Source: Candidatus Magasanikiibacteriota bacterium (GTDB taxonomy: Bacteria; Patescibacteriota; Patescibacteriia; Magasanikbacterales; UBA922). Taken from it: 64,000 bases of DNA. A program made the position numbers and the translations under genes. Below, piece by piece: positions 42,478 through 55,154 of this stretch. Where the stretch lies: NCBI GenBank assembly GCA_042218065.1, contig JBDGRL010000012.1, positions 4,244 through 68,243 on the forward strand. The letters run 5' to 3'. Position 1 is the stretch's first letter, and the number at the start of each line of letters is the position of its first letter. The notes beneath the pieces were generated by a model. The model worked only from the letters and a program-made list of their open reading frames with translations, was not told where the DNA came from and made no database searches.

Positions 42478-44010
42478 ATGTCACCCCCAAACCGAGGAGA
42501 TAATAATAGAGATCCTGGAAAATTAGGCGATGAAAATTCTGTAAATAACCCAGAACAAGAACCTGGAGAAGAGTTTTTAGACCCTAATCAAAAACCTGAA
42601 AGATATTATGGTGAGCCTGGTAGTTTGTCTGAAAAGTTAGAGTTAATAGATAAAGTTATTCTAAGAAGAGATGCTGATTTGTTAGTTGAGGAAGACTTAA
42701 TGACTGATGATCAATTGATGGAGTATTTAGTATTGGTTGAGGGTGAGCAGTCAGAGCAGATAGTTCGTATGATTAGAAGTTTTAACGTTTTAGTTGAAGA
42801 CTTTACTTCGCAAGATGAAGATCCTTTTTCAGTTGAGGGAATTAGAAAAATAGCTAATAGAACTGGCTTGGATCGTCCTAGTTTTTTTACCAAGATAGCC
42901 AAAGCATATTTTCACATGGGCCAATTTGATCCCTCTTTTTTTCTTACAAGTGAAAGATTGACAAAAGCGGTACTTGATCTAAAAGAGGGAGAAATTTCTC
43001 CGATAGAAAAAGCTGATGCGGTTGAAACCTTAGGTTCTATTCAGGATAAATTTGGAGATCAAGCCAGTGCTTATAAACTAAAAGAAAGCGGATTACAAGT
43101 TTTAAATCATTCAGATATGCAAGATGTAAATCAAGCATGGTTAAAAGCAAAGTGTCTCCACGGAATGGCTGACTATCAAATAGATGATGAGAGAGTTCCT
43201 AATGAAAAGATAGAAGATAGATTTGAAGAGGTAGAACAGATCCTCCGTGATATTCAAGATGAAGCTCATGTAGCTAGAACAAAACTAGATATAGCAAAGT
43301 TTCATATTCAAAATGAGGATTATAAAAAAGCTCACCAATATGCAAGCCAGGCTTATGAAGAATTACACGAAACTGGTTATATTAGGAAATTGCCGGACGC
43401 AGCTGAGATTATGAGGGATAGTCAAGAACAACTTAGTTCGGATGCACAAATTGTAAGAAGAATAGAACAAATCCAAACGCAAGACAGAGAAGCAATACAA
43501 CCTAAAAGAGAAGATTTAGTTGAACTTAAAGAAACAGAAGAAAAGTTAAAACCAGCTAGAGTTTTATTAAAACTCCCAAGCTCTTCTGGAGAAACTGTGT
43601 ATTTTGTTAAAAAAGATTCTGATGGAAGTTATGAGCTGCCAGAAATTGAAGGTTTGGAGAGTGGGGAGGGTTTTTCTAAGTTTGAAATGTTAAAAAATTT
43701 AGAAAGAATGCTAGCAGAGAATTTATCTGAGTCAGAAGATGCAGAATTAGAAAAAATTACATCTAATCATCCAGTCATTCCTACAGGTGAGGAAAAAAGA
43801 AGTGAAGATCGAGAGGTGCAATTATATAAAATAGATCTAACATCAGGACCACAAGATAAAATACCAGAGGTGAAACCTGGTGAGCTTGAAAAAAAAGAAA
43901 AATTTTGCTATGTTGCTATGAAATATGAAGAATTAAAGAGTAATCAAGAAAATTTTGATTCTGAATCGCAAAAATTGATTGAAGGAGAAATTGAATATCA
44001 AGGAGAGTAA
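42478..44010 (+). CDS. hypothetical acidic protein
   Basis: 510 aa, highly acidic and helical. No recognisable domain. Confidence 0.45.
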   Translation: MSPPNRGDNNRDPGKLGDENSVNNPEQEPGEEFLDPNQKPERYYGEPGSLSEKLELIDKVILRRDADLLVEEDLMTDDQLMEYLVLVEGEQSEQIVRMIRSFNVLVEDFTSQDEDPFSVEGIRKIANRTGLDRPSFFTKIAKAYFHMGQFDPSFFLTSERLTKAVLDLKEGEISPIEKADAVETLGSIQDKFGDQASAYKLKESGLQVLNHSDMQDVNQAWLKAKCLHGMADYQIDDERVPNEKIEDRFEEVEQILRDIQDEAHVARTKLDIAKFHIQNEDYKKAHQYASQAYEELHETGYIRKLPDAAEIMRDSQEQLSSDAQIVRRIEQIQTQDREAIQPKREDLVELKETEEKLKPARVLLKLPSSSGETVYFVKKDSDGSYELPEIEGLESGEGFSKFEMLKNLERMLAENLSESEDAELEKITSNHPVIPTGEEKRSEDREVQLYKIDLTSGPQDKIPEVKPGELEKKEKFCYVAMKYEELKSNQENFDSESQKLIEGEIEYQGE

Positions 44011-44176
44011 AAATATTACGACTAAATCGAAACAACTGCAGGCATAGCTAGCTGGATTTTTTTAATTTAGCTAGGTGTGCCTGCCTCGCTGAGGAGGACA
44101 CCCGCCAAAACTTCCCGCTGGGAATAAGTGGCGTCGTTATAGTCCGTAAACCTTTCCGCGAATGCGGAGGTTTGTG

Positions 44177-44791
44177 ATGAGTAACGAGCAACGGAGAGTC
44201 GTCTCGCTGGACGAAGTCCGCGAGACGCTCGCCGACGAATTTGGGGAAAAGGTCTTGATTGACCTGATTCCACAGATCGACGAGTCCCAGTGGGTCCTCG
44301 ACCTCTGGGCCGAGCTCGATGGGGCACAACCTCATGATGAGTGGGTCGCTGGTCGTCGAGATCGGCGATTCTTCGATGTGGGGGTTCGTAACCCCTATCT
44401 CGATCCCCCTCAAGGAGCGCCATGGGGGCAACTCGAGATCAGGGAGGAGCCGACGATTCAGCCGGACCAGTCCGGCAACCGGATCGTCGGGTACGTCCTC
44501 ATCGAGTCGCTTCGGCTCGAATACGGATCGGCCGTGCGTGTCACGGCCAGCTCCGTCTCGAACGATGAGGCGGAGATCTGCGTCGACGACCAGCCGGCGA
44601 TCGAGTCGGAGGACGAGGTCCACGGGATGTTTCGCACAAACGGCCCCCGAATCAACGGGGACGTGTTGGTGATCGAACGCCCGGTCGAATCCGCTGAGGG
44701 CGATGGGTGGGGAACCCCCAATGCCCTCATCAAGCAGGCCGAAGATCAAAAAGTCGGTCAAGGTCTGCGTCAAGCGGGCCTCGTCGAGTAA
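44177..44791 (+). CDS. hypothetical 204-aa acidic protein encoded within a about 60% GC foreign-looking block
   Basis: GGAGG at 44166-44170, then 6 nt, then ATG at 44177. There is a strong G/C third-codon-position bias (gag gtc tcg ctg gac ...) unlike all neighbouring genes. The track ORF 44162..44791 uses an upstream ATG without an RBS. The overlapping antisense ORFs are typical high-GC artefacts. Confidence 0.55.
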   Translation: MSNEQRRVVSLDEVRETLADEFGEKVLIDLIPQIDESQWVLDLWAELDGAQPHDEWVAGRRDRRFFDVGVRNPYLDPPQGAPWGQLEIREEPTIQPDQSGNRIVGYVLIESLRLEYGSAVRVTASSVSNDEAEICVDDQPAIESEDEVHGMFRTNGPRINGDVLVIERPVESAEGDGWGTPNALIKQAEDQKVGQGLRQAGLVE

Positions 44792-44938
44792 TTGAACACC
44801 AACACCCCGAGTCGCGAACCCACGGACTTCACGGCCCGTGCTGAAGCGGCTCGGGGTTGAGCCCCAGGAAAGGTAAGCCTGAGAATGGCGGAGCCGAATT
44901 TCCGAGAGGAGGGAGCCTAGCGTGTTAACGTGAGGCTA

Positions 44939-44963
44939 GCAGGTTCGAATCCTGCCCGGGGCA
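44939..44963 (+). other. tRNA/tmRNA-like 3' fragment: T-stem-loop GCAGG-TTCGAAT-CCTGC plus acceptor 3' strand CCGGGGC and discriminator A; no complete cloverleaf found
   Basis: Canonical GGTTCGAATCC T-loop context followed by a 7-nt acceptor strand and then TTTT. I could not find a complementary 5' acceptor strand, D arm or anticodon arm upstream. Confidence 0.45.
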
Positions 44964-45001
44964 TTTTGCACGATTGTTCGATCTTTGTAGAATTTGGGGG
45001 A

Positions 45002-48196: not shown

Positions 48197-49048
48197 ATGA
48201 ATCTATCAGTAATTACCGTAACTTGGAACAATGAAGATGAAATAGCCGAGCAGATACGCTCGGTAAGATCTGCATGTAATGATATCGAATTCGAGCAGAT
48301 TATAGTAGATAATGACTCACCAGATGATACCGTAAAAGTTATTGAAAAAAATTTTCCTGAGGTGAAATTGATAGCTAATAAGGAAAATAAAGGCTTTGGT
48401 ACAGCAAATAATCAAGGAGTTGAACAAGCAGAAGGTGAATTTTTGTTGTTTTTAAATCCGGATATGAAACTAAAAGAGGGAAGCTTAGATAAGATAGTAA
48501 AATGGATGAGAGACAATGAAGATGTAGGAATTGCTTGTCCAAAGCTTATTAACGAAGACGGTAGTTTCAACGAGCATGCCAGTCCACGCAGTTTCCCTAC
48601 AGTTCTAGAGCAGCTAGCGATTATTTTCAAGATCCCTCACATTTTTCCATCTGTATTAGATAGATATTTAATGACAGATTTTGATCCAAGTAAGGAGCGA
48701 GAAGTCGATAGTGTCCGCGGATCTTTTATGCTGATGCGAAGAGAAATTGTAGAAGAACTAGGCTGGGCTTTCGATCCAAGATACTTCATCTGGTATGAAG
48801 ATGTAGATATCTGTCGTGAAGTAAAAAGCCTAGGCTACAAAGTAATGTATACTCCGGTAATTGAAGCAGTTGATTATGTCGGTAAGAGCTTCGGCCAGAG
48901 AAGAGGTCTATGGAAGCAAAAGAACTTTACTGAAAGTATGCTAAAATATTTCAAAAAATGGGAGCCATTCTATAAATGGATCTGGATCGCTATGGCTCGT
49001 CCGATTGGAATTTTTATGGTTTGGTTGCAAGAAAAAATTATAAATTAA
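48197..49048 (+). CDS. glycosyltransferase family 2
   Basis: 283 aa. LSVITVTWNNEDEI...IVDNDSPDDT..., a DxD-like motif and C-terminal amphipathic helices are typical of GT2 rhamnosyl/glucosyltransferases. Confidence 0.8.
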   Translation: MNLSVITVTWNNEDEIAEQIRSVRSACNDIEFEQIIVDNDSPDDTVKVIEKNFPEVKLIANKENKGFGTANNQGVEQAEGEFLLFLNPDMKLKEGSLDKIVKWMRDNEDVGIACPKLINEDGSFNEHASPRSFPTVLEQLAIIFKIPHIFPSVLDRYLMTDFDPSKEREVDSVRGSFMLMRREIVEELGWAFDPRYFIWYEDVDICREVKSLGYKVMYTPVIEAVDYVGKSFGQRRGLWKQKNFTESMLKYFKKWEPFYKWIWIAMARPIGIFMVWLQEKIIN

Positions 49049-49054
49049 GAAACT

Positions 49055-50584
49055 ATGCCTAAAACACCAGAGGAGAGAAAAAAAGAGCTGAAGCACAACC
49101 TCTCCCTAAAAATAAAAAAGTGGGTAAAAAACTCCAAAAAAAGCCTGAAGGAGCTAGCTACTACCTTATGGCCCAAAGCAAAAGAGGATAAATATTACAA
49201 AAAGAAGAAAGGAGGTTTAGTATTTGATGCTGAGGCATTTTTAAATGACTGGGCTGAAAATATATTGCAAGAAGAACGGGCGGAGCCGAATGATATCTCT
49301 TTTGTAGATAGACCGATTATAGAAACGGATGAAGGGGAAATAACTCCCGGGGAGGAGGAGTTTGAAAGTAAAAAAACAATTCCGAGAACACAATATCTAC
49401 AAGAAGTACTGCAAGAATTCGGTTATGATTTTTCTATTGTCGTAGGTAGCGATAGACCGGAGATGTTCAGAGAAGAACCTTATCAGGCTTATATGGTTCA
49501 AGATATAGACAGGATTGTGTTGGTAAACAACCAAGAAGAAGAAGCGACCTTCGTGATATTCGACAGTGATACGGAAGATCTATTTGACAGGCCTCAGCTA
49601 AAAGATGATCTTAAAAGTAGACCGGATGTAAAACGTATAAAATATGAAGGTAAAGAAAGCTGGCAAAATAAACTAAGGGAGTTATTGGAGGAAGACTATA
49701 ATTTAAAAGAGACTGAAGGACGTTTTCTCAGTTTCGATGAATTGAAAAAAGAAGTACAAGCAGCAGGGGTAGAAAGCAGTAGCGAATATCAAGAAGAACA
49801 AAAAGAACACGACAATTGGCCCAGCACCCCTAATAGAGCTTACTCCAAACAATGGTCAAGCTGGTACGACTTTTTAGGCAAGGAAAAGCCTAAAGAAAGA
49901 TTTCTCGGTTTCAATGAATTACAAAAAGAAATACAGGCAGCAGATATAATGAATCGGTCAGAATATAGAAAAGAACAAAAAGAACACGACAATTGGCCTA
50001 GCCAACCTTATAGAACATACTCCGAACAATGGATCGATTGGTATGACTTTCTAGAAAAGGAAAAACCTGAATATATTAGTTTCAATGAGTTAAAAAAAGA
50101 AGTACAATCTGCAGGAATAGAAAGTCGAAGAGAATATAGAGAAGAACAAAAAGAGCACAATAGATGGCCGTCTAATCCTGTTAAATATTATCAAAATAAA
50201 TGGAAAAATTGGTACGATTTTTTAGGTAAAGAGAAATCTGAATATCTTAATTTTAGTGAATTAAAAAAAGAAGTTCAAGCAACAGGTATAGAAAGTCATA
50301 TAGAATATATAGAAGAACAAAAAAAGCACGACAGTTGGCCCAGTACCCCAGATAGAATTTATTCAGAACAGTGGACTAACTGGTATGATTTTCTGGACAA
50401 AGAAAAACCCGAAGAAAAATTAAGCTTTAATGAGCTAAAGAAAGAAGTACAAGCAGCAAATATAAATACACAAAGAGAATATAGAGAAGAACAAAAAGAG
50501 CATAATAGATGGCCCTCTAAGCCTGAAGGATTTTATCAAAATAAATGGAAAAATTGGTACGACTTTCTAGGTAAAGAAAAATAA
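49055..50584 (+). CDS. hypothetical protein with unique N-terminal domain and about five tandem 57-59-aa repeats (consensus F-x-S-F-x-E-L-K-K-E-V-Q-A-A-G-I-E-S..EY.EEQKEH..WPS.P...Y...W..WYDFLGKEK)
   Basis: 509 aa. The repeats are directly visible in the translation, for example ...FNELKKEVQAAGIESRREYREEQKEHNRWPSNPVKYYQNKWKNWYDFLGKEK.... It sits between GT2 genes. Confidence 0.6.
   Translation: MPKTPEERKKELKHNLSLKIKKWVKNSKKSLKELATTLWPKAKEDKYYKKKKGGLVFDAEAFLNDWAENILQEERAEPNDISFVDRPIIETDEGEITPGEEEFESKKTIPRTQYLQEVLQEFGYDFSIVVGSDRPEMFREEPYQAYMVQDIDRIVLVNNQEEEATFVIFDSDTEDLFDRPQLKDDLKSRPDVKRIKYEGKESWQNKLRELLEEDYNLKETEGRFLSFDELKKEVQAAGVESSSEYQEEQKEHDNWPSTPNRAYSKQWSSWYDFLGKEKPKERFLGFNELQKEIQAADIMNRSEYRKEQKEHDNWPSQPYRTYSEQWIDWYDFLEKEKPEYISFNELKKEVQSAGIESRREYREEQKEHNRWPSNPVKYYQNKWKNWYDFLGKEKSEYLNFSELKKEVQATGIESHIEYIEEQKKHDSWPSTPDRIYSEQWTNWYDFLDKEKPEEKLSFNELKKEVQAANINTQREYREEQKEHNRWPSKPEGFYQNKWKNWYDFLGKEK
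49724..50581 (+). repeat. in-frame tandem DNA repeat array, about 5 copies of 171-177 bp (coding repeats of 49055..50584)
   Basis: Repeat starts at about 49724, 49901, 50072, 50243 and 50416. Exact 29-mers recur, for example gaagaacaaaaagaacacgacaattggcc at about 49793 and 49973. Confidence 0.8.
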
Positions 50585-50585
50585 A

Positions 50586-51647
50586 ATGCGAAAACTATCA
50601 GTACAACTAGTAACTTGGAATGGAGAGGATTATATCCCATATCTGTTTGATTCTCTACGAGATCAAACCTTTGACGATTGGAAGCTGAACATTTTAGATA
50701 ATAATTCTGATGATAATACTTTAGAAGCACTAGAGAAGGAGCTGGAAGACTTTGAAGTTAATTATCACTTCCAACAAAATGATACAAATGTCGGCTTTGC
50801 TCCGGGTCATAATAAGCTTTTTAGGGAAACAAACTCCGAGTATTTTTTAATGCTGAACCAGGATATGTACTTGCAGCCGGATTGCTTAGAAAAGTTGGTT
50901 GATTTTTTAGATAAAAATCAGGAAGCTGCAGGGGTAACACCGCGTTTAATGAGATGGAAATTTGATCTACTAAAAGATAAAAATGTGGAAGAAAATGATC
51001 TGCTTAAGCAAAGCTTTACCGATCAGGTGGACTCTTTGGGTATGAAAATTTTTAAAAATCGCAGAGTTATAGAGCAATATACCCAAAAAAAATGGAGCAA
51101 GATTAAGGATAAATTTGATTCAGATACCCGAGAAGTCTTCGGTGTGTCAGGTGCTTTTCCTATGTTCCGCAGGAGCTCCATAGAAGAAATTACTTTCGAT
51201 AATGGTAATTATCTGGACGAAGATTATCATTCTTACAAGGAGGATGTGGATCTAGCTTATCGTTTGCAGTCCAGCGGCAACAAAGCTTATGTCATATTAG
51301 ATACAGTAGCTTATCATGATCGTTCCGCTGCCGGTCCGGAAAACCCTGGAATTATAGCTACTATAAAGAATAAACTTGATCAGAGTGAGTGGGTGAAAAA
51401 ACACAGCTACAAAAACCATCTGATGACGTTGTATAAGAATGAATATTGGCAGAATTTTTTGCTTGATTTTCCATTTATATTTTGGTATGAATTAAAGAAG
51501 TTCATCTGGTATCTACTATTTGATCCGAAAGTGCTGAAAAGCCTGGCTACAGCATGGAGTCTAAGAGATAGAATGAAAGAAAAAAGAGAACAAATTAAAA
51601 AAGGGCGTGTCAAGAATTATAAAGAAATGAGAGAAAACTGGTTGTAA
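50586..51647 (+). CDS. glycosyltransferase family 2
   Basis: 353 aa. LSVQLVTWNGEDYIPYLFDSL...LDNNSDDNT and DxD features. The start overlaps the previous stop region. Confidence 0.8.
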   Translation: MRKLSVQLVTWNGEDYIPYLFDSLRDQTFDDWKLNILDNNSDDNTLEALEKELEDFEVNYHFQQNDTNVGFAPGHNKLFRETNSEYFLMLNQDMYLQPDCLEKLVDFLDKNQEAAGVTPRLMRWKFDLLKDKNVEENDLLKQSFTDQVDSLGMKIFKNRRVIEQYTQKKWSKIKDKFDSDTREVFGVSGAFPMFRRSSIEEITFDNGNYLDEDYHSYKEDVDLAYRLQSSGNKAYVILDTVAYHDRSAAGPENPGIIATIKNKLDQSEWVKKHSYKNHLMTLYKNEYWQNFLLDFPFIFWYELKKFIWYLLFDPKVLKSLATAWSLRDRMKEKREQIKKGRVKNYKEMRENWL

Positions 51648-51659
51648 ATTCCAATGATA

Positions 51660-51838
51660 ATATTAATTTTCCACTATATCGAGCATTTGAGCATGAGCGT
51701 ATAAAATTTTAGCTATGAAGAGCGATTTCTTTGTTTCAATGTTTGACGCCGAGTCGGCGGTGAGTTTTGAAACAAAAGCGATGAATAGTAAAAATTTAGT
51801 GAAAGCTCAACCAGCGAGAGATAGTGGAAAATTAATAT
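51660..51838. repeat. intergenic long inverted-repeat element: 18-bp perfect outer arms (ATATTAATTTTCCACTAT / ATAGTGGAAAATTAATAT) enclosing a 10-bp inner IR (TTTGTTTCAA/TTGAAACAAA) and a GC hairpin
   Basis: Arms at 51660-51677 and 51821-51838. Inner IR at 51730-51739 and 51767-51776. CGCCGA/TCGGCG at 51747-51760. No T-tract. Confidence 0.7.
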
Positions 51839-51845
51839 CAAACAG

Positions 51846-52691
51846 ATGAAAGACTTAACAATTGCATTCGTCAACTACAAGATGAAAGACGACGTCATTA
51901 AAGCAATAGACTCCATATTGGATGACATCGAGGGGTGCGATTATGATATTCAGATAAATGTAGCTGATAATTCACAAAATGAGGACGGATTGAAAGATGA
52001 AATGGAGGAAAAATTTCCTCAGGATAATGTAAAATATATAGATTCGGGTGGTAATGTCGGATTTGGAGCTGGTAATAACATAGCATTTCAAGAAACACCG
52101 GCTAGGTACTATTTTGCTCTCAATTGTGACACTGTAATACCGAAAGACTCCAACACTATTGAAAGAATTATAGAATTTATGGACGATAATCCTAAGATCG
52201 GTTGTATCGGGCCTAGATTGGAGAATATGGATGGAAGTTTGCAGTATTCTTGTTTTCGCTTTGATCTGCCCTCCATTTTGATCAAACCTCTCAAGAAAGC
52301 AGGCTTACACAAAAAATGGGATTGGGTTAAAAAATACACTGACAATCTACTGATGAAAGATTTTGACCACTCTGAAACCATGCCTGTAGACTGGGTACTG
52401 GGGGCAGCTATGGTAGTACGCAAAGAGGCAGTCGATGATGTAGGCTGGTTCGATGAGCGGTATTTTATGTATATAGAGGATGCAGATTGGTGCCATGAAA
52501 TGTGGGAAGCTGGTTGGCCAGTTTATTATGTTCCTGATATAGTAATAAGGCACAGACATGAGAGGGGTTCAGACAAAGTTCCGGGAATCATAAAAGCTTT
52601 AGTAAAAAATAAATTAGCAAGAATCCACTTGGCCAGTTGGTTAAAATACCTCTGGAAGTGGAGAGGTAATCATAAATATTATGCTAGATAA
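51846..52691 (+). CDS. glycosyltransferase family 2
   Basis: 281 aa. LTIAFVNYKMKDDVIKAIDSI...VADNSQNEDG and a GT2 DxD region. Confidence 0.8.
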   Translation: MKDLTIAFVNYKMKDDVIKAIDSILDDIEGCDYDIQINVADNSQNEDGLKDEMEEKFPQDNVKYIDSGGNVGFGAGNNIAFQETPARYYFALNCDTVIPKDSNTIERIIEFMDDNPKIGCIGPRLENMDGSLQYSCFRFDLPSILIKPLKKAGLHKKWDWVKKYTDNLLMKDFDHSETMPVDWVLGAAMVVRKEAVDDVGWFDERYFMYIEDADWCHEMWEAGWPVYYVPDIVIRHRHERGSDKVPGIIKALVKNKLARIHLASWLKYLWKWRGNHKYYAR

Positions 52692-52698
52692 TTTTCAT

Positions 52699-52815
52699 TC
52701 ATTCTTGTCCGCTCATTCTCACTATGTTCCGAGGTAATTACCTGCATGACTTTAGGTAATTAAATCCGCGGACAAGAATGAGTGAAATTTTAGATCTATG
52801 ATGATTGAAACATTG
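52699..52815. repeat. intergenic inverted-repeat element: 14-bp arms TCATTCTTGTCCGC / GCGGACAAGAATGA around a 55-nt loop containing palindrome GGTAATTACC; followed by motif AAATTTTAGATCTATGATG shared with element at 51703-51720
   Basis: Arms at 52699-52712 and 52768-52781. GGTAATTACC at 52733-52742. Shared motif AAATTTTAG(C/AT)CTATGA(A/T)G. Confidence 0.65.
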
Positions 52816-52862
52816 TATAAGATTTATTGCATGGATATTTGAATTAAATAATTATCACCAAT

Positions 52863-53984
52863 ATGAAGAAAGAGGCAGAAAATTTAGACGAATATCCAAA
52901 GATAGCGATTGTTTATCTTTCCTTTCATTGTGAGCCCTATATTGATGATGTAGTTTCAGCTCTTAAAAATGTAACTTATCCAAAGGACAAGTTAGAGCTG
53001 GTCATAGTAGATAATCCCCATCCTGATCATGGCTCTTCTGTCCGTTATCTAGAAGAGAATGTCATGCCGATGTCGGGAGAAGAACTGCCTCATATTACAT
53101 TATTACCTCAAGAGGAGAACTTAGGCTTTGCTGGCGGCAACAACAAAGGTGCTGAGTGGGCACTGGAGAATGATTATGATTATGTATTTTTTCATAATGA
53201 TGATGGGTTTGTAGCGACTAATTGTTTTGAACCACTGGTAGAATTAATGGAGCAAAATGAGGGTGTAGGCATGGCTCAGTCATTAATGCTTCTACACCCG
53301 GATACTGATAAAATAAACAATACGGGAAACTCCTTTCATTACTTAGGTTTTGGGTTCGGGAATAATTATAGAATGCCTGTCAAAGATTATGAGAAAGAAG
53401 AACCTCAAGAAATAGGGTATGCAAGTGGAGCAGCTCTTATGGTACCAACTGATCTGATTGAAAAGCATGGAGCCTGGGATGAGGATTACTTTCTGTATCA
53501 TGAAGATATGGAATGGTGTTTTCGGTTGAGATCACTCGGGTATGAAATTAAGATGGTCCCAAACTCTATCTTTTATCATAAATATCAGTTTAGCCGCAGT
53601 ATTACCAAATTCTATTATATGGAAAGAAATAGATATGGAACCTGGCTCAGATTCTTTAGCTGGCCAACTCTTCTTATGTTATTACCCATGGAATTAGTGC
53701 TAGAAATTGGTTTGTTAATCTATTCTATTAAAAATAGCTGGTTTGATAAGAGGTTAAAATTGTATAAGTATTGGCTTAAACCAAAGAATTGGAAAATGTG
53801 GCTTGAAAAAAGAAGAGAAACTAGAAAAAACAAGAAAGTCAGTGATAGAGAATTGCTTGCCAAAGCTAATCCGATAATAGAATTTCAAGAAAAATCGATG
53901 CAAGATCCTTTATTGAAGAAAGTTGGTAATCCGATTATGAAGTTGTATTATTACATAGTAGTTCGTGGTTTGATTTGGTGGTAA
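52863..53984 (+). CDS. glycosyltransferase family 2 (rhamnosyltransferase-like)
   Basis: 373 aa. IAIVYLSFHCEPYIDDVVSAL..VIVDNPHPD.. plus GT2 features and a C-terminal membrane-associating region. Confidence 0.75.
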   Translation: MKKEAENLDEYPKIAIVYLSFHCEPYIDDVVSALKNVTYPKDKLELVIVDNPHPDHGSSVRYLEENVMPMSGEELPHITLLPQEENLGFAGGNNKGAEWALENDYDYVFFHNDDGFVATNCFEPLVELMEQNEGVGMAQSLMLLHPDTDKINNTGNSFHYLGFGFGNNYRMPVKDYEKEEPQEIGYASGAALMVPTDLIEKHGAWDEDYFLYHEDMEWCFRLRSLGYEIKMVPNSIFYHKYQFSRSITKFYYMERNRYGTWLRFFSWPTLLMLLPMELVLEIGLLIYSIKNSWFDKRLKLYKYWLKPKNWKMWLEKRRETRKNKKVSDRELLAKANPIIEFQEKSMQDPLLKKVGNPIMKLYYYIVVRGLIWW

Positions 53985-54056
53985 CTTTTGTTAAAATCTT
54001 TTTAGATTCTAATTACGTATTTAAGTTGGAAAGGTTTTAAATTAAATCTCTAATAT

Positions 54057-55154
54057 ATGAGAGTAACAACAGCAATTTTAACCGGAGGAGGTGAAGGAAC
54101 TAGGTTGCATCCTATTACCCAAAATCGAAATAAGCATATGGTGCCGGTAGGTAATCAACCTATGATATTTCATGCAATTGAAACTGCAGTAGAGGCGGGC
54201 ATAAACACTATATACATTAATCTTAACCCCGGAGAAACTGAGTTGCAAAAACATATCGGAGACGGGGGTCACTGGGGAATTGATATAGAGTATTTTCAAC
54301 AAGAAGGTGGGCCACAAGGTTTGGCTCATGTCGTAAAGCAAGGTGAAGATTTGGTTAAGAATGAGCCTTTCCTTTTCTATTTATCTGATAATATTTTTTT
54401 GGATGGGATAGAGGAACTGGTAGAGGAGTTCGAGTCGGGAAAATATGATTGTATGCTGGCCCTGTCTGAAGTAGAAGAGCCGGAAAGATATGGTGTCCCC
54501 AAATTTCATCCAGAAAAAGAGGATCAGCTTGCTGATGTTCTGGAAAAACCAGATGAGCCGCCTAATAATTTTGCTGTAACGGGTGCATATGTATATGGTC
54601 CGGAAATATTTTTTGATGCATTTGAAGAGATAGAAAAAAGTGAAAGAGGTGAGTATGAAATATCTGATATCCATTCTCGCTTCATTGATAAGGGTAAAAA
54701 AGTAGGATATAAAGAGGTTACAGGATGGTGGACTGATACAGGAAAACCACCGGCATTACTCGAAGCAAACAAAATGGTATTAGACGATATGGAGGAGGAA
54801 AAATTTCCTAAAAACGGATTAATTGATGAGGGGGCTACAATAAAAGGAAATGTTCACATCGGTGTAGGAACGAAAGTAGGCCCAAATGTTCGTATTGATG
54901 GTCCAGTAATTATTGGAGAAAATTGTCAGCTGAAGGACTGCCGAATCGGTCCTTACGTAACTGTTGGGACGGGAGTAGAAATAGAAGAAGCGTCCGTTAC
55001 AAATAGTGTGGTTTTGAGTAACTCAGAACTGAAAATTGACATGGATATTACCAGCAGTTTAGTTGGAGAGAAGGTGAGTGTTAAACACAAAAAACAGGAG
55101 CGGGAAAAAGCTAGAAAAATGCTCTTGGGTGACAAAACAGAGATTGAGATATAA
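54057..55154 (+). CDS. NDP-sugar pyrophosphorylase, long-form glucose-1-phosphate thymidylyltransferase-like (RmlA-like N-terminal domain + C-terminal left-handed beta-helix)
   Basis: 365 aa. ILTGGGEGTRLHPIT is a G-x-G-T-R-L nucleotidyltransferase motif. The C-terminal hexapeptide repeats (..IGVGTKVGPNVRIDGPVIIGENC..) indicate an LbH domain. Confidence 0.7.
   Translation: MRVTTAILTGGGEGTRLHPITQNRNKHMVPVGNQPMIFHAIETAVEAGINTIYINLNPGETELQKHIGDGGHWGIDIEYFQQEGGPQGLAHVVKQGEDLVKNEPFLFYLSDNIFLDGIEELVEEFESGKYDCMLALSEVEEPERYGVPKFHPEKEDQLADVLEKPDEPPNNFAVTGAYVYGPEIFFDAFEEIEKSERGEYEISDIHSRFIDKGKKVGYKEVTGWWTDTGKPPALLEANKMVLDDMEEEKFPKNGLIDEGATIKGNVHIGVGTKVGPNVRIDGPVIIGENCQLKDCRIGPYVTVGTGVEIEEASVTNSVVLSNSELKIDMDITSSLVGEKVSVKHKKQEREKARKMLLGDKTEIEI

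Follow-up and report, generated by a model that had tools for sequence, protein, structure and literature searches.

An INT_rpt repeat array joined to an undescribed N-terminal domain in a protein encoded within a Patescibacteria glycosyltransferase operon

Why does a protein that ends in five aromatic-rich tandem repeats lie among the glycosyltransferase genes of a Candidatus Magasanikiibacteriota bacterium, and what might its repeats recognise? The gene is the single open reading frame (ORF) at 49055-50584 of a 64,000-nucleotide stretch of contig JBDGRL010000012.1 (assembly GCA_042218065.1, positions 4,244 to 68,243), hereafter the window, and it encodes 509 amino acids (aa). We find that the repeat belongs to a known, catalogued family, Pfam PF14882 INT_rpt, and that the undescribed part of the protein is the N-terminal domain (ND) to which the array is joined.

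The array matches INT_rpt ('Integrase repeat unit') in five stretches, with an E-value of 1.2e-14 and 54.7 bits in hmmscan against a gathering threshold of 26.5 bits. An initial annotation, made from the letters of the window, could place the repeat in no family and held that a clear database hit would remove its novelty; this match does so. The ~55-aa period of the family, its tandem layout and its Y/P/P/Y/W/W/F signature are all present here: Y21, P32, P35, Y39, W43, W46 and F49 are invariant or at least 90% conserved in an alignment with units of unrelated proteins. The pattern ..WPS.P...Y...W..WYDFL.KEK that had been read from the letters is correct, and all five units agree at 26 of the 54 positions. 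The protein is also already catalogued at NCBI, where the identical MFB6181548.1 is annotated as 'MAG: integrase repeat-containing protein [Candidatus Magasanikbacteria bacterium]' (MAG, metagenome-assembled genome).

Five in-frame units with 54-aa cores, joined by linkers of 3-5 aa, occupy 49727-50581. Their spacing is 59, 57, 57 and 58 aa (177, 171, 171 and 174 bp; period 57-59 aa), so that the C-terminal layout of five units of 171-177 bp described earlier is upheld by segmentation, by Tandem Repeats Finder and by hidden Markov models (HMMs). Tandem Repeats Finder reports a 171-bp period across 49730-50581 (4.9 copies, 71% matches) and also a 345-bp two-unit super-period, with scores of 595-848. 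Such scores, and the E-values of 1e-22 to 1e-25 with which the units each match the repeat HMM, put the array far beyond what chance would give.

The units had been taken for near-identical, recently homogenised copies that are prone to changes in number, and none of this holds. They are 59-81% identical to one another in amino acids and 69-83% in nucleotides, that is, they differ at 17-31% of nucleotides. The exact 29-mers that had been noted survive for two pairs, units 1 and 2 (28 nt) and units 3 and 5 (30 nt), both within the A-rich codons of EEQKEH; the remaining pairs share exact words of only 11-18 nt. In a Nei-Gojobori comparison of the units, the proportion of synonymous differences (pS) is 0.45-0.75, the synonymous divergence (dS) runs from 0.7 to >3, near saturation, and the ratio of nonsynonymous to synonymous divergence (dN/dS) is 0.06-0.25. 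The copies are therefore old, each individually maintained by purifying selection, and not recently homogenised; the copy-number instability that had been deduced from homogenisation is contradicted by the same saturated synonymous divergence.

Structure prediction had been proposed as a check on the repeats, and AlphaFold2, run on the full-length protein, folds them confidently: the mean predicted local distance difference test score (pLDDT) is 86.5 for the whole model and >90 in every INT_rpt unit. In the predicted unit, helices of 10 and 8 residues are followed by a long WPSxP loop and then by two short helices. The positions at which the units vary are grouped at 14-19, 34-38 and 44-45.

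Membership in INT_rpt (formerly PHINT_rpt) does not by itself assign a role, as this is a family without established function or solved structure; the papers that name it treat it as a marker of integrases or, as PHINT_rpt, list it among repeat families without a structure. Its name implies an integrase, whereas the 509-aa protein contains no integrase or other recognised enzyme domain. The name is historical, and most of the listed INT_rpt relatives lack an integrase domain as well. To the best 120 relatives the protein is related through the array only, and their Pfam annotations (names checked by hmmscan on examples) give the domains with which INT_rpt is combined: ResIII/DEAD/Helicase_C in 18 proteins, most of them also with SWI2_SNF2, GIY-YIG in 6, Integrase_2 (PF13009) in 4, Mrr_cat in 2, and DUF559 and LAGLIDADG_3 in 1 each. 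The ResIII/DEAD/SNF2-type helicases and the GIY-YIG, Mrr, DUF559 and LAGLIDADG nucleases follow the same modular logic as the protein studied here, with a catalytic head and an INT_rpt tail, and the array closest in sequence among the relatives listed (48% identity) is carried by a helicase, P0002. They differ from it in that no helicase or nuclease signature was detected in the ND.

INT_rpt arrays encoded on plasmids lie in genes labelled either 'integrase repeat-containing protein' or 'VPA1269 family protein'. VPA1269 is another name for GmtZ, which Gamma-Mobile-Trio islands need, along with two other proteins, for their site-specific excision and insertion (bioRxiv 10.1101/2023.03.28.534373). 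The GmtZ/VPA1269 integrases likewise carry INT_rpt arrays (10 units in P0003), but they contain Integrase_2 (PF13009, as in P0003), which is absent from the protein studied here. Their islands have gmtY, a tyrosine recombinase gene, and gmtX next to gmtZ, where the present gene has GT2 glycosyltransferases, and their hosts are Gammaproteobacteria, whereas the host here belongs to the Patescibacteria and the array follows an unrelated domain. Judged from the helicases, integrases and nucleases to which INT_rpt arrays are attached in other proteins, the likeliest role of INT_rpt is to bind nucleic acid. The initial annotation had named carbohydrate and nucleic acid as possible ligands; the second fits best, whereas the first finds no match among carbohydrate-binding families.

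An INT_rpt-like array also occurs in one of 50,697 phage records, LR745208.1 (217158-218012), an unannotated 485-kb uncultured jumbo phage with three INT_rpt-like places.

That the N-terminal ~220 aa are a separate domain, unrelated to the repeats, was rightly seen at the outset: aa 1-224 have a family of their own and a confident AlphaFold2 model (pLDDT 90.1; predicted template modelling score, pTM, 0.85). Searches with the ND against Pfam, NCBIfam, PHROGs and PADLOC gave no meaningful match. A word-indexed protein search returned 0 matches for the ND alone and 1 for an ND alignment, and the family emerged when phmmer was run exhaustively against 1.84 billion cluster representatives, a search that yielded 209 relatives at E<=1e-3 and 75 at E<=1e-10, counted as 50%-identity clusters. 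The match is N-terminal (residues ~1-250) in all 150 listed relatives, which are roughly 170-1,190 aa long; NDs are 30-40% identical to one another, and the protein studied here matches the ND profile with 206 bits. The family consensus begins LPPDEGEI.tGsGeGiEeK.iIPRT.YL.E.LsEL...Y....G.NtPnMMR..SY..F.iP...K.VLVNNEEGNATFV and continues ....lTKDELK...V..i.Y.G...WK. G131, M137 and R139 are invariant in an alignment of 32 sequences.

Two parts of the ND can be distinguished. The helical head appears to be helix-turn-helix (HTH)-like, as judged from its predicted helices and from the pattern of its motif; one weak HTH_38 match was obtained in 32 members, no fold match was found for the head, and its single PDB sequence match is a weak one to a designed helical repeat. 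Although the domain is consistently acidic, its first 45 aa in the protein studied here are basic (net +8). The conserved acidic alpha/beta core carries the motifs IPRT.YL, G.N.P.MMR..SY..F, NEEGNATF (here NQEEEATF), TKDELK (here LKDDLK) and Y.G...WK.

We classified 149 listed ND relatives with HMMs built for this analysis, and 105 of them carry arrays. By far the commonest array consists of a ~68-aa unit, 'PEGW..LA.ELGVS...I.K.A..YR..HPEWFK.Y....REHYSPELV' (the PEGW repeat), present in 1-12 copies in 95 of the 149; INT_rpt arrays of 1-6 units occur in 10 (about 7%), and the other 44 have another C-terminus or are truncated. Patescibacteria proteins with PEGW arrays (e.g. MBU0731440.1, a hypothetical protein) share with the protein studied here a homologous ND (30-41% identity), the head-plus-array layout and the clade, and differ from it in having a repeat type unrelated to INT_rpt. 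PEGW units give recurrent sub-threshold matches to transposase-type HTH_29, HTH_23/28, the paired domain and the Sleeping Beauty HTH. Two of the other 44 carry further repeat types: P0121 has a repeat with a weak match to HNH_repeat, and P0133 (L006, 67-2349) has a ~95-aa tandem repeat, ...FxxWQxxPxxxRGxFxxxWL..., at aa ~290-760, without a Pfam, PHROG or PADLOC match. HNH_repeat (PF18780, associated with homing endonucleases) is likewise a ~55-aa helical tandem repeat on DNA enzymes, but the P0121-type repeat and INT_rpt show no detectable profile similarity (hhalign probability 7%). A common origin of the INT_rpt, PEGW and P0121-type repeats was considered and rejected (hhalign probability <8%).

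When ND proteins are ordered by identity of the ND, the members with INT_rpt form several groups that interleave with those carrying PEGW, and the NDs nearest to the one studied here (41% identity) bear PEGW arrays. Because of this interleaving, the family looks like a constant head with exchangeable C-terminal arrays of at least three unrelated repeat types. Separately, the PEGW repeat (P0122, P0123, P0129, P0140 and others; loci L002-L022) looks like a previously undescribed family of HTH-like repeats.

When one genome of each GTDB species was scanned with a tight core ND alignment of 12 sequences, 21 ND loci were found, nearly all in Patescibacteria MAGs (Magasanik-, Morani-, Doudna-, Uhr- and Saccharibacteria); a few lie in Third Party Annotation (TPA) bins that bear the label Gammaproteobacteria or Bdellovibrionales. 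A scan of 2.9 M viral contigs found no ND locus. Readings of the protein as a phage protein or as part of a defence system were rejected, given this empty scan and the lack of a meaningful PHROGs or PADLOC match. Tandem paralogues occur at L014 (7737-9518 and 9616-11190) and L017 (5345-7711 and 7713-9815), and the Magasanikbacteria MAG JACRFU01 holds two separate loci, L004 and L005. No gene partner is conserved across the loci, even at relaxed BLAST thresholds; the Pfam-checked neighbours vary and include a P-type ATPase, AdoHcy hydrolase, FtsJ, MnmA, Fic and amino-acid biosynthesis genes.

At the locus in the window the GT2 genes do flank the ORF, as reported at the outset, with gaps of 6 and 1 nt (Table 1); these gaps suggest that the three genes are probably transcribed together, and the terminator-like site nearest to the ORF follows the downstream GT2. 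To place this arrangement, metagenome contigs were scanned with the downstream GT2, which gave 80 orthologous clusters (48-61% identity) with the conserved order GT2-GT2-GT2-GT2-NTP_transferase-(PEGA)-.... Both flanking GT2 genes are present in 74 clusters. In 67 of these they are directly adjacent (gap <=97 bp), and in the other 7 the junction holds a HAD hydrolase, NUDIX, cupin, PNPOx or unknowns; an ND or INT_rpt gene occurs in 0 of the 80. These counts mark the ORF as a lineage-specific insertion in a conserved operon of four GT2 genes. By composition it does not stand out: its GC content is 0.354, compared with 0.36-0.385 in its GT2 neighbours, and its GC content at third codon positions (GC3) likewise matches theirs, so that composition gives no sign of recent transfer. 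In the same set of clusters (L023-L102, orthologues of window 48197-55154), the junctions GT2a/GT2b, GT2b/GT2c and GT2d/NTP_transferase repeatedly hold unrelated accessory genes, among them HAD, NUDIX, cupin, PNPOx, aldo-keto reductase, B12-radical SAM and asparaginase.

Table 1. Coordinates of the ORF, its parts and its flanking genes in the window
Feature	Position	Residues	Strand	Remarks
Whole ORF	49055..50584	509 aa plus stop	+	single ORF there
N-terminal domain (ND)	49055..49726	aa 1-224	+	separate domain, no library model
ND helical head	49055..49279	aa 1-75	+	family motif LL.sG..L.eIAelLGA, looks HTH-like
ND conserved acidic alpha/beta core	49376..49699	aa 108-215	+	family motifs
INT_rpt unit 1	49727..49888	aa 225-278	+	net charge -4
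INT_rpt unit 2	49904..50065	aa 284-337	+	net charge -4
INT_rpt unit 3	50075..50236	aa 341-394	+	net charge +3; nearest to unit 5 (81% aa)
INT_rpt unit 4	50246..50407	aa 398-451	+	net charge -5
INT_rpt unit 5	50420..50581	aa 456-509	+	net charge +2; stop codon directly after
Upstream GT2 glycosyltransferase	48197..49048		+	context; 6-nt gap to ORF
Downstream GT2 glycosyltransferase	50586..51647		+	context; 1-nt gap to ORF; synteny query

The array is thus a repeated module joined to an unrelated N-terminal domain, and the explanation that we favour, with moderate confidence, is that it binds nucleic acid in a multivalent manner while the ND has a constant function. The protein would be a soluble, two-part accessory protein of a family from the Patescibacteria (the candidate phyla radiation, CPR). 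A hydropathy scan found neither a signal peptide nor a membrane segment (Kyte-Doolittle hydropathy over 19 aa peaks at 0.44, and the protein begins with a highly charged N-terminus), and because no hydrophobic segment is present we take the protein to be cytoplasmic. The constant ND, with its basic, putatively HTH-like helical head and its acidic alpha/beta core, would be joined to an exchangeable array of small helical modules. The five INT_rpt units would act as a multivalent track for the recognition of nucleic acid, presumably DNA, and the ND would supply the constant activity, which may be self-association, an enzymatic function or the binding of a partner.

Several observations weigh against this explanation. 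The whole protein is acidic (net -22, isoelectric point 5.1), as are three of the five units, and INT_rpt units family-wide are only mildly basic, with a median charge of +2. A Foldseek search of the array model against the PDB found no significant match and no DNA-binding fold, and sequence and profile searches of PDB chains with the whole protein and the INT_rpt profile found no relatives. The ND gave no Foldseek match in the PDB or BFVD, where the best E-values (0.2-0.4, insignificant) were to the C-terminal domains of Integrator IntS9/11, and no relatives in a profile search of PDB sequences. A literature search returned no functional study of INT_rpt and no direct evidence of DNA binding for any member. 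In addition, a minority of ND loci, including the GT2 locus here, lie in cell-envelope contexts: one has an M23 peptidase and a GT4 glycosyltransferase as neighbours, and at L004 (7713-9132), L008 (7701-9554) and L013 (4419-5936) FtsW-MurG directly precede the ND gene. In L008 and L013 MurC directly follows it, and the order FtsW-MurG-[ND]-MurC-MurB is found among the examples.

A bolder reading, which we regard as possible and put forward tentatively, is that the ND has a new fold and defines a Patescibacteria-specific class of proteins with a constant head and a swappable, DNA-reading array. Such proteins might belong to a lineage-specific chromosome-organising or regulatory system, or might carry a new catalytic head, for example a nuclease, whose target changes as INT_rpt, HTH-like and other repeat arrays are exchanged.

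Could the arrays instead serve as protein-protein interaction or spacer modules, so that the protein is a scaffold without a nucleic-acid ligand, possibly dimerising through the ND? The overall acidity of the protein would suit such a role, as would the lack of a DNA-binding fold match for INT_rpt, and the likeness of the ND core to the IntS9/IntS11 domains, its only recurrent one and an insignificant one, is to dimerisation domains. However, the enzymes to which INT_rpt is joined act overwhelmingly on DNA, and the PEGW array, the commonest alternative on the ND, looks HTH-like. We therefore consider a pure scaffold rather unlikely.

The insertion itself raises the idea of a selfish gene resembling a homing endonuclease, in which the ND would be an unrecognised nuclease and the swappable array would set its DNA target. 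Free-standing homing endonucleases show presence/absence polymorphism at conserved intergenic sites, as is seen here with 67 of 74 junctions empty; this likeness is not specific, since the other inserts are metabolic genes. ND genes also lie in many operons at gaps of 0-20 nt, and the paired loci of one MAG, the tandem paralogues, the swapping of C-terminal arrays among family members, and the occurrence of INT_rpt and, in P0121, of a weak match to HNH_repeat, both repeat types seen with homing endonucleases, would all agree with a mobile gene. Yet no nuclease family or motif was detected in the 32 aligned NDs (the single hint is an Hjc match at E 0.031), no fold match to nucleases was found, and the genes at the same operon junctions elsewhere are ordinary metabolic genes, not endonucleases. 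The match of GC and GC3 to the neighbouring genes, the absence of the family from viral contigs and the low identity among NDs, which does not suggest recent spread, also speak against it. Homing is thus an unlikely account of the gene.

A link to glycan or cell-envelope synthesis, in which a cytoplasmic scaffold or regulator would use its aromatic-rich repeats to bind either sugar-nucleotide or lipid-linked intermediates or the GT2 enzymes themselves, appears improbable. It draws on the tight packing of the ORF between GT2 genes, on the relatives between murG and murC or beside the M23 peptidase and GT4, and on the aromatic residues, which make up 16% of the array. Against it, the gene is missing from all 80 orthologous GT2 clusters, most ND loci have unrelated neighbours, and INT_rpt is combined elsewhere with DNA enzymes. 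The conserved aromatics may be explained more simply as the hydrophobic core of a 54-aa domain. LysM, SH3b, CW_binding, ChW, SLH and similar carbohydrate- or cell-wall-binding repeats gave no Pfam match at E<=1, and proteins with such repeats have an export signal or membrane anchor, neither of which is present here. The role in glycan synthesis, export or regulation that the initial annotation drew from the position of the gene is accordingly not supported; the ORF seems to sit by chance in a sugar-transferase operon.

Finally, short reads can mis-assemble tandem repeats, but collapse or expansion of the array during assembly is very unlikely because of the divergence between units (longest common word 30 nt) and because a second assembly, produced by Logan from run SRR28304479, includes a contig of 2,898 bp that matches window 48828-51725 with three mismatches, all inside the upstream gene, and codes for exactly the same 509-aa protein; the reading frame is unbroken, and homologues have comparable arrays of 3-10 units.

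Elsewhere in the window, no DNA tandem repeats of note were found as candidate binding sites. A GC-rich island at 44000-45000 (0.53-0.63 GC in 400-nt windows, compared with a window average of 0.36) contains long overlapping ORFs at 44162-44791 (+) and 44048-44773 (-); the + ORF has no Pfam match and the region has no Rfam match. This island could be foreign DNA or a chimeric join. Next to it, 42478-44010 encodes a highly acidic 510-aa protein without a Pfam match, a 521-aa relative of which lies upstream of the GT2 cluster in L052.

What, then, does this locus mean? The flagged repeat is a catalogued one, so the repeat finding itself is not new. INT_rpt occurs on helicases, on nucleases and on the integrases of mobile defence islands, yet it is functionally unstudied, and the confident five-unit model, together with the three clusters of variable positions, offers a starting point for tests of DNA reading. 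The synteny result counsels caution against inferring function from position in GT2 operons, whose junctions take up unrelated genes. The ND marks an unannotated family of about 200 clusters, mainly from Patescibacteria, whose members exchange repeat arrays of unrelated types. CPR has many such unannotated families, of which this is one; it is relevant both to CPR biology and to DNA-binding repeat modules; lineage-specific modular proteins of this kind could explain part of the large 'hypothetical' fraction in CPR genomes.

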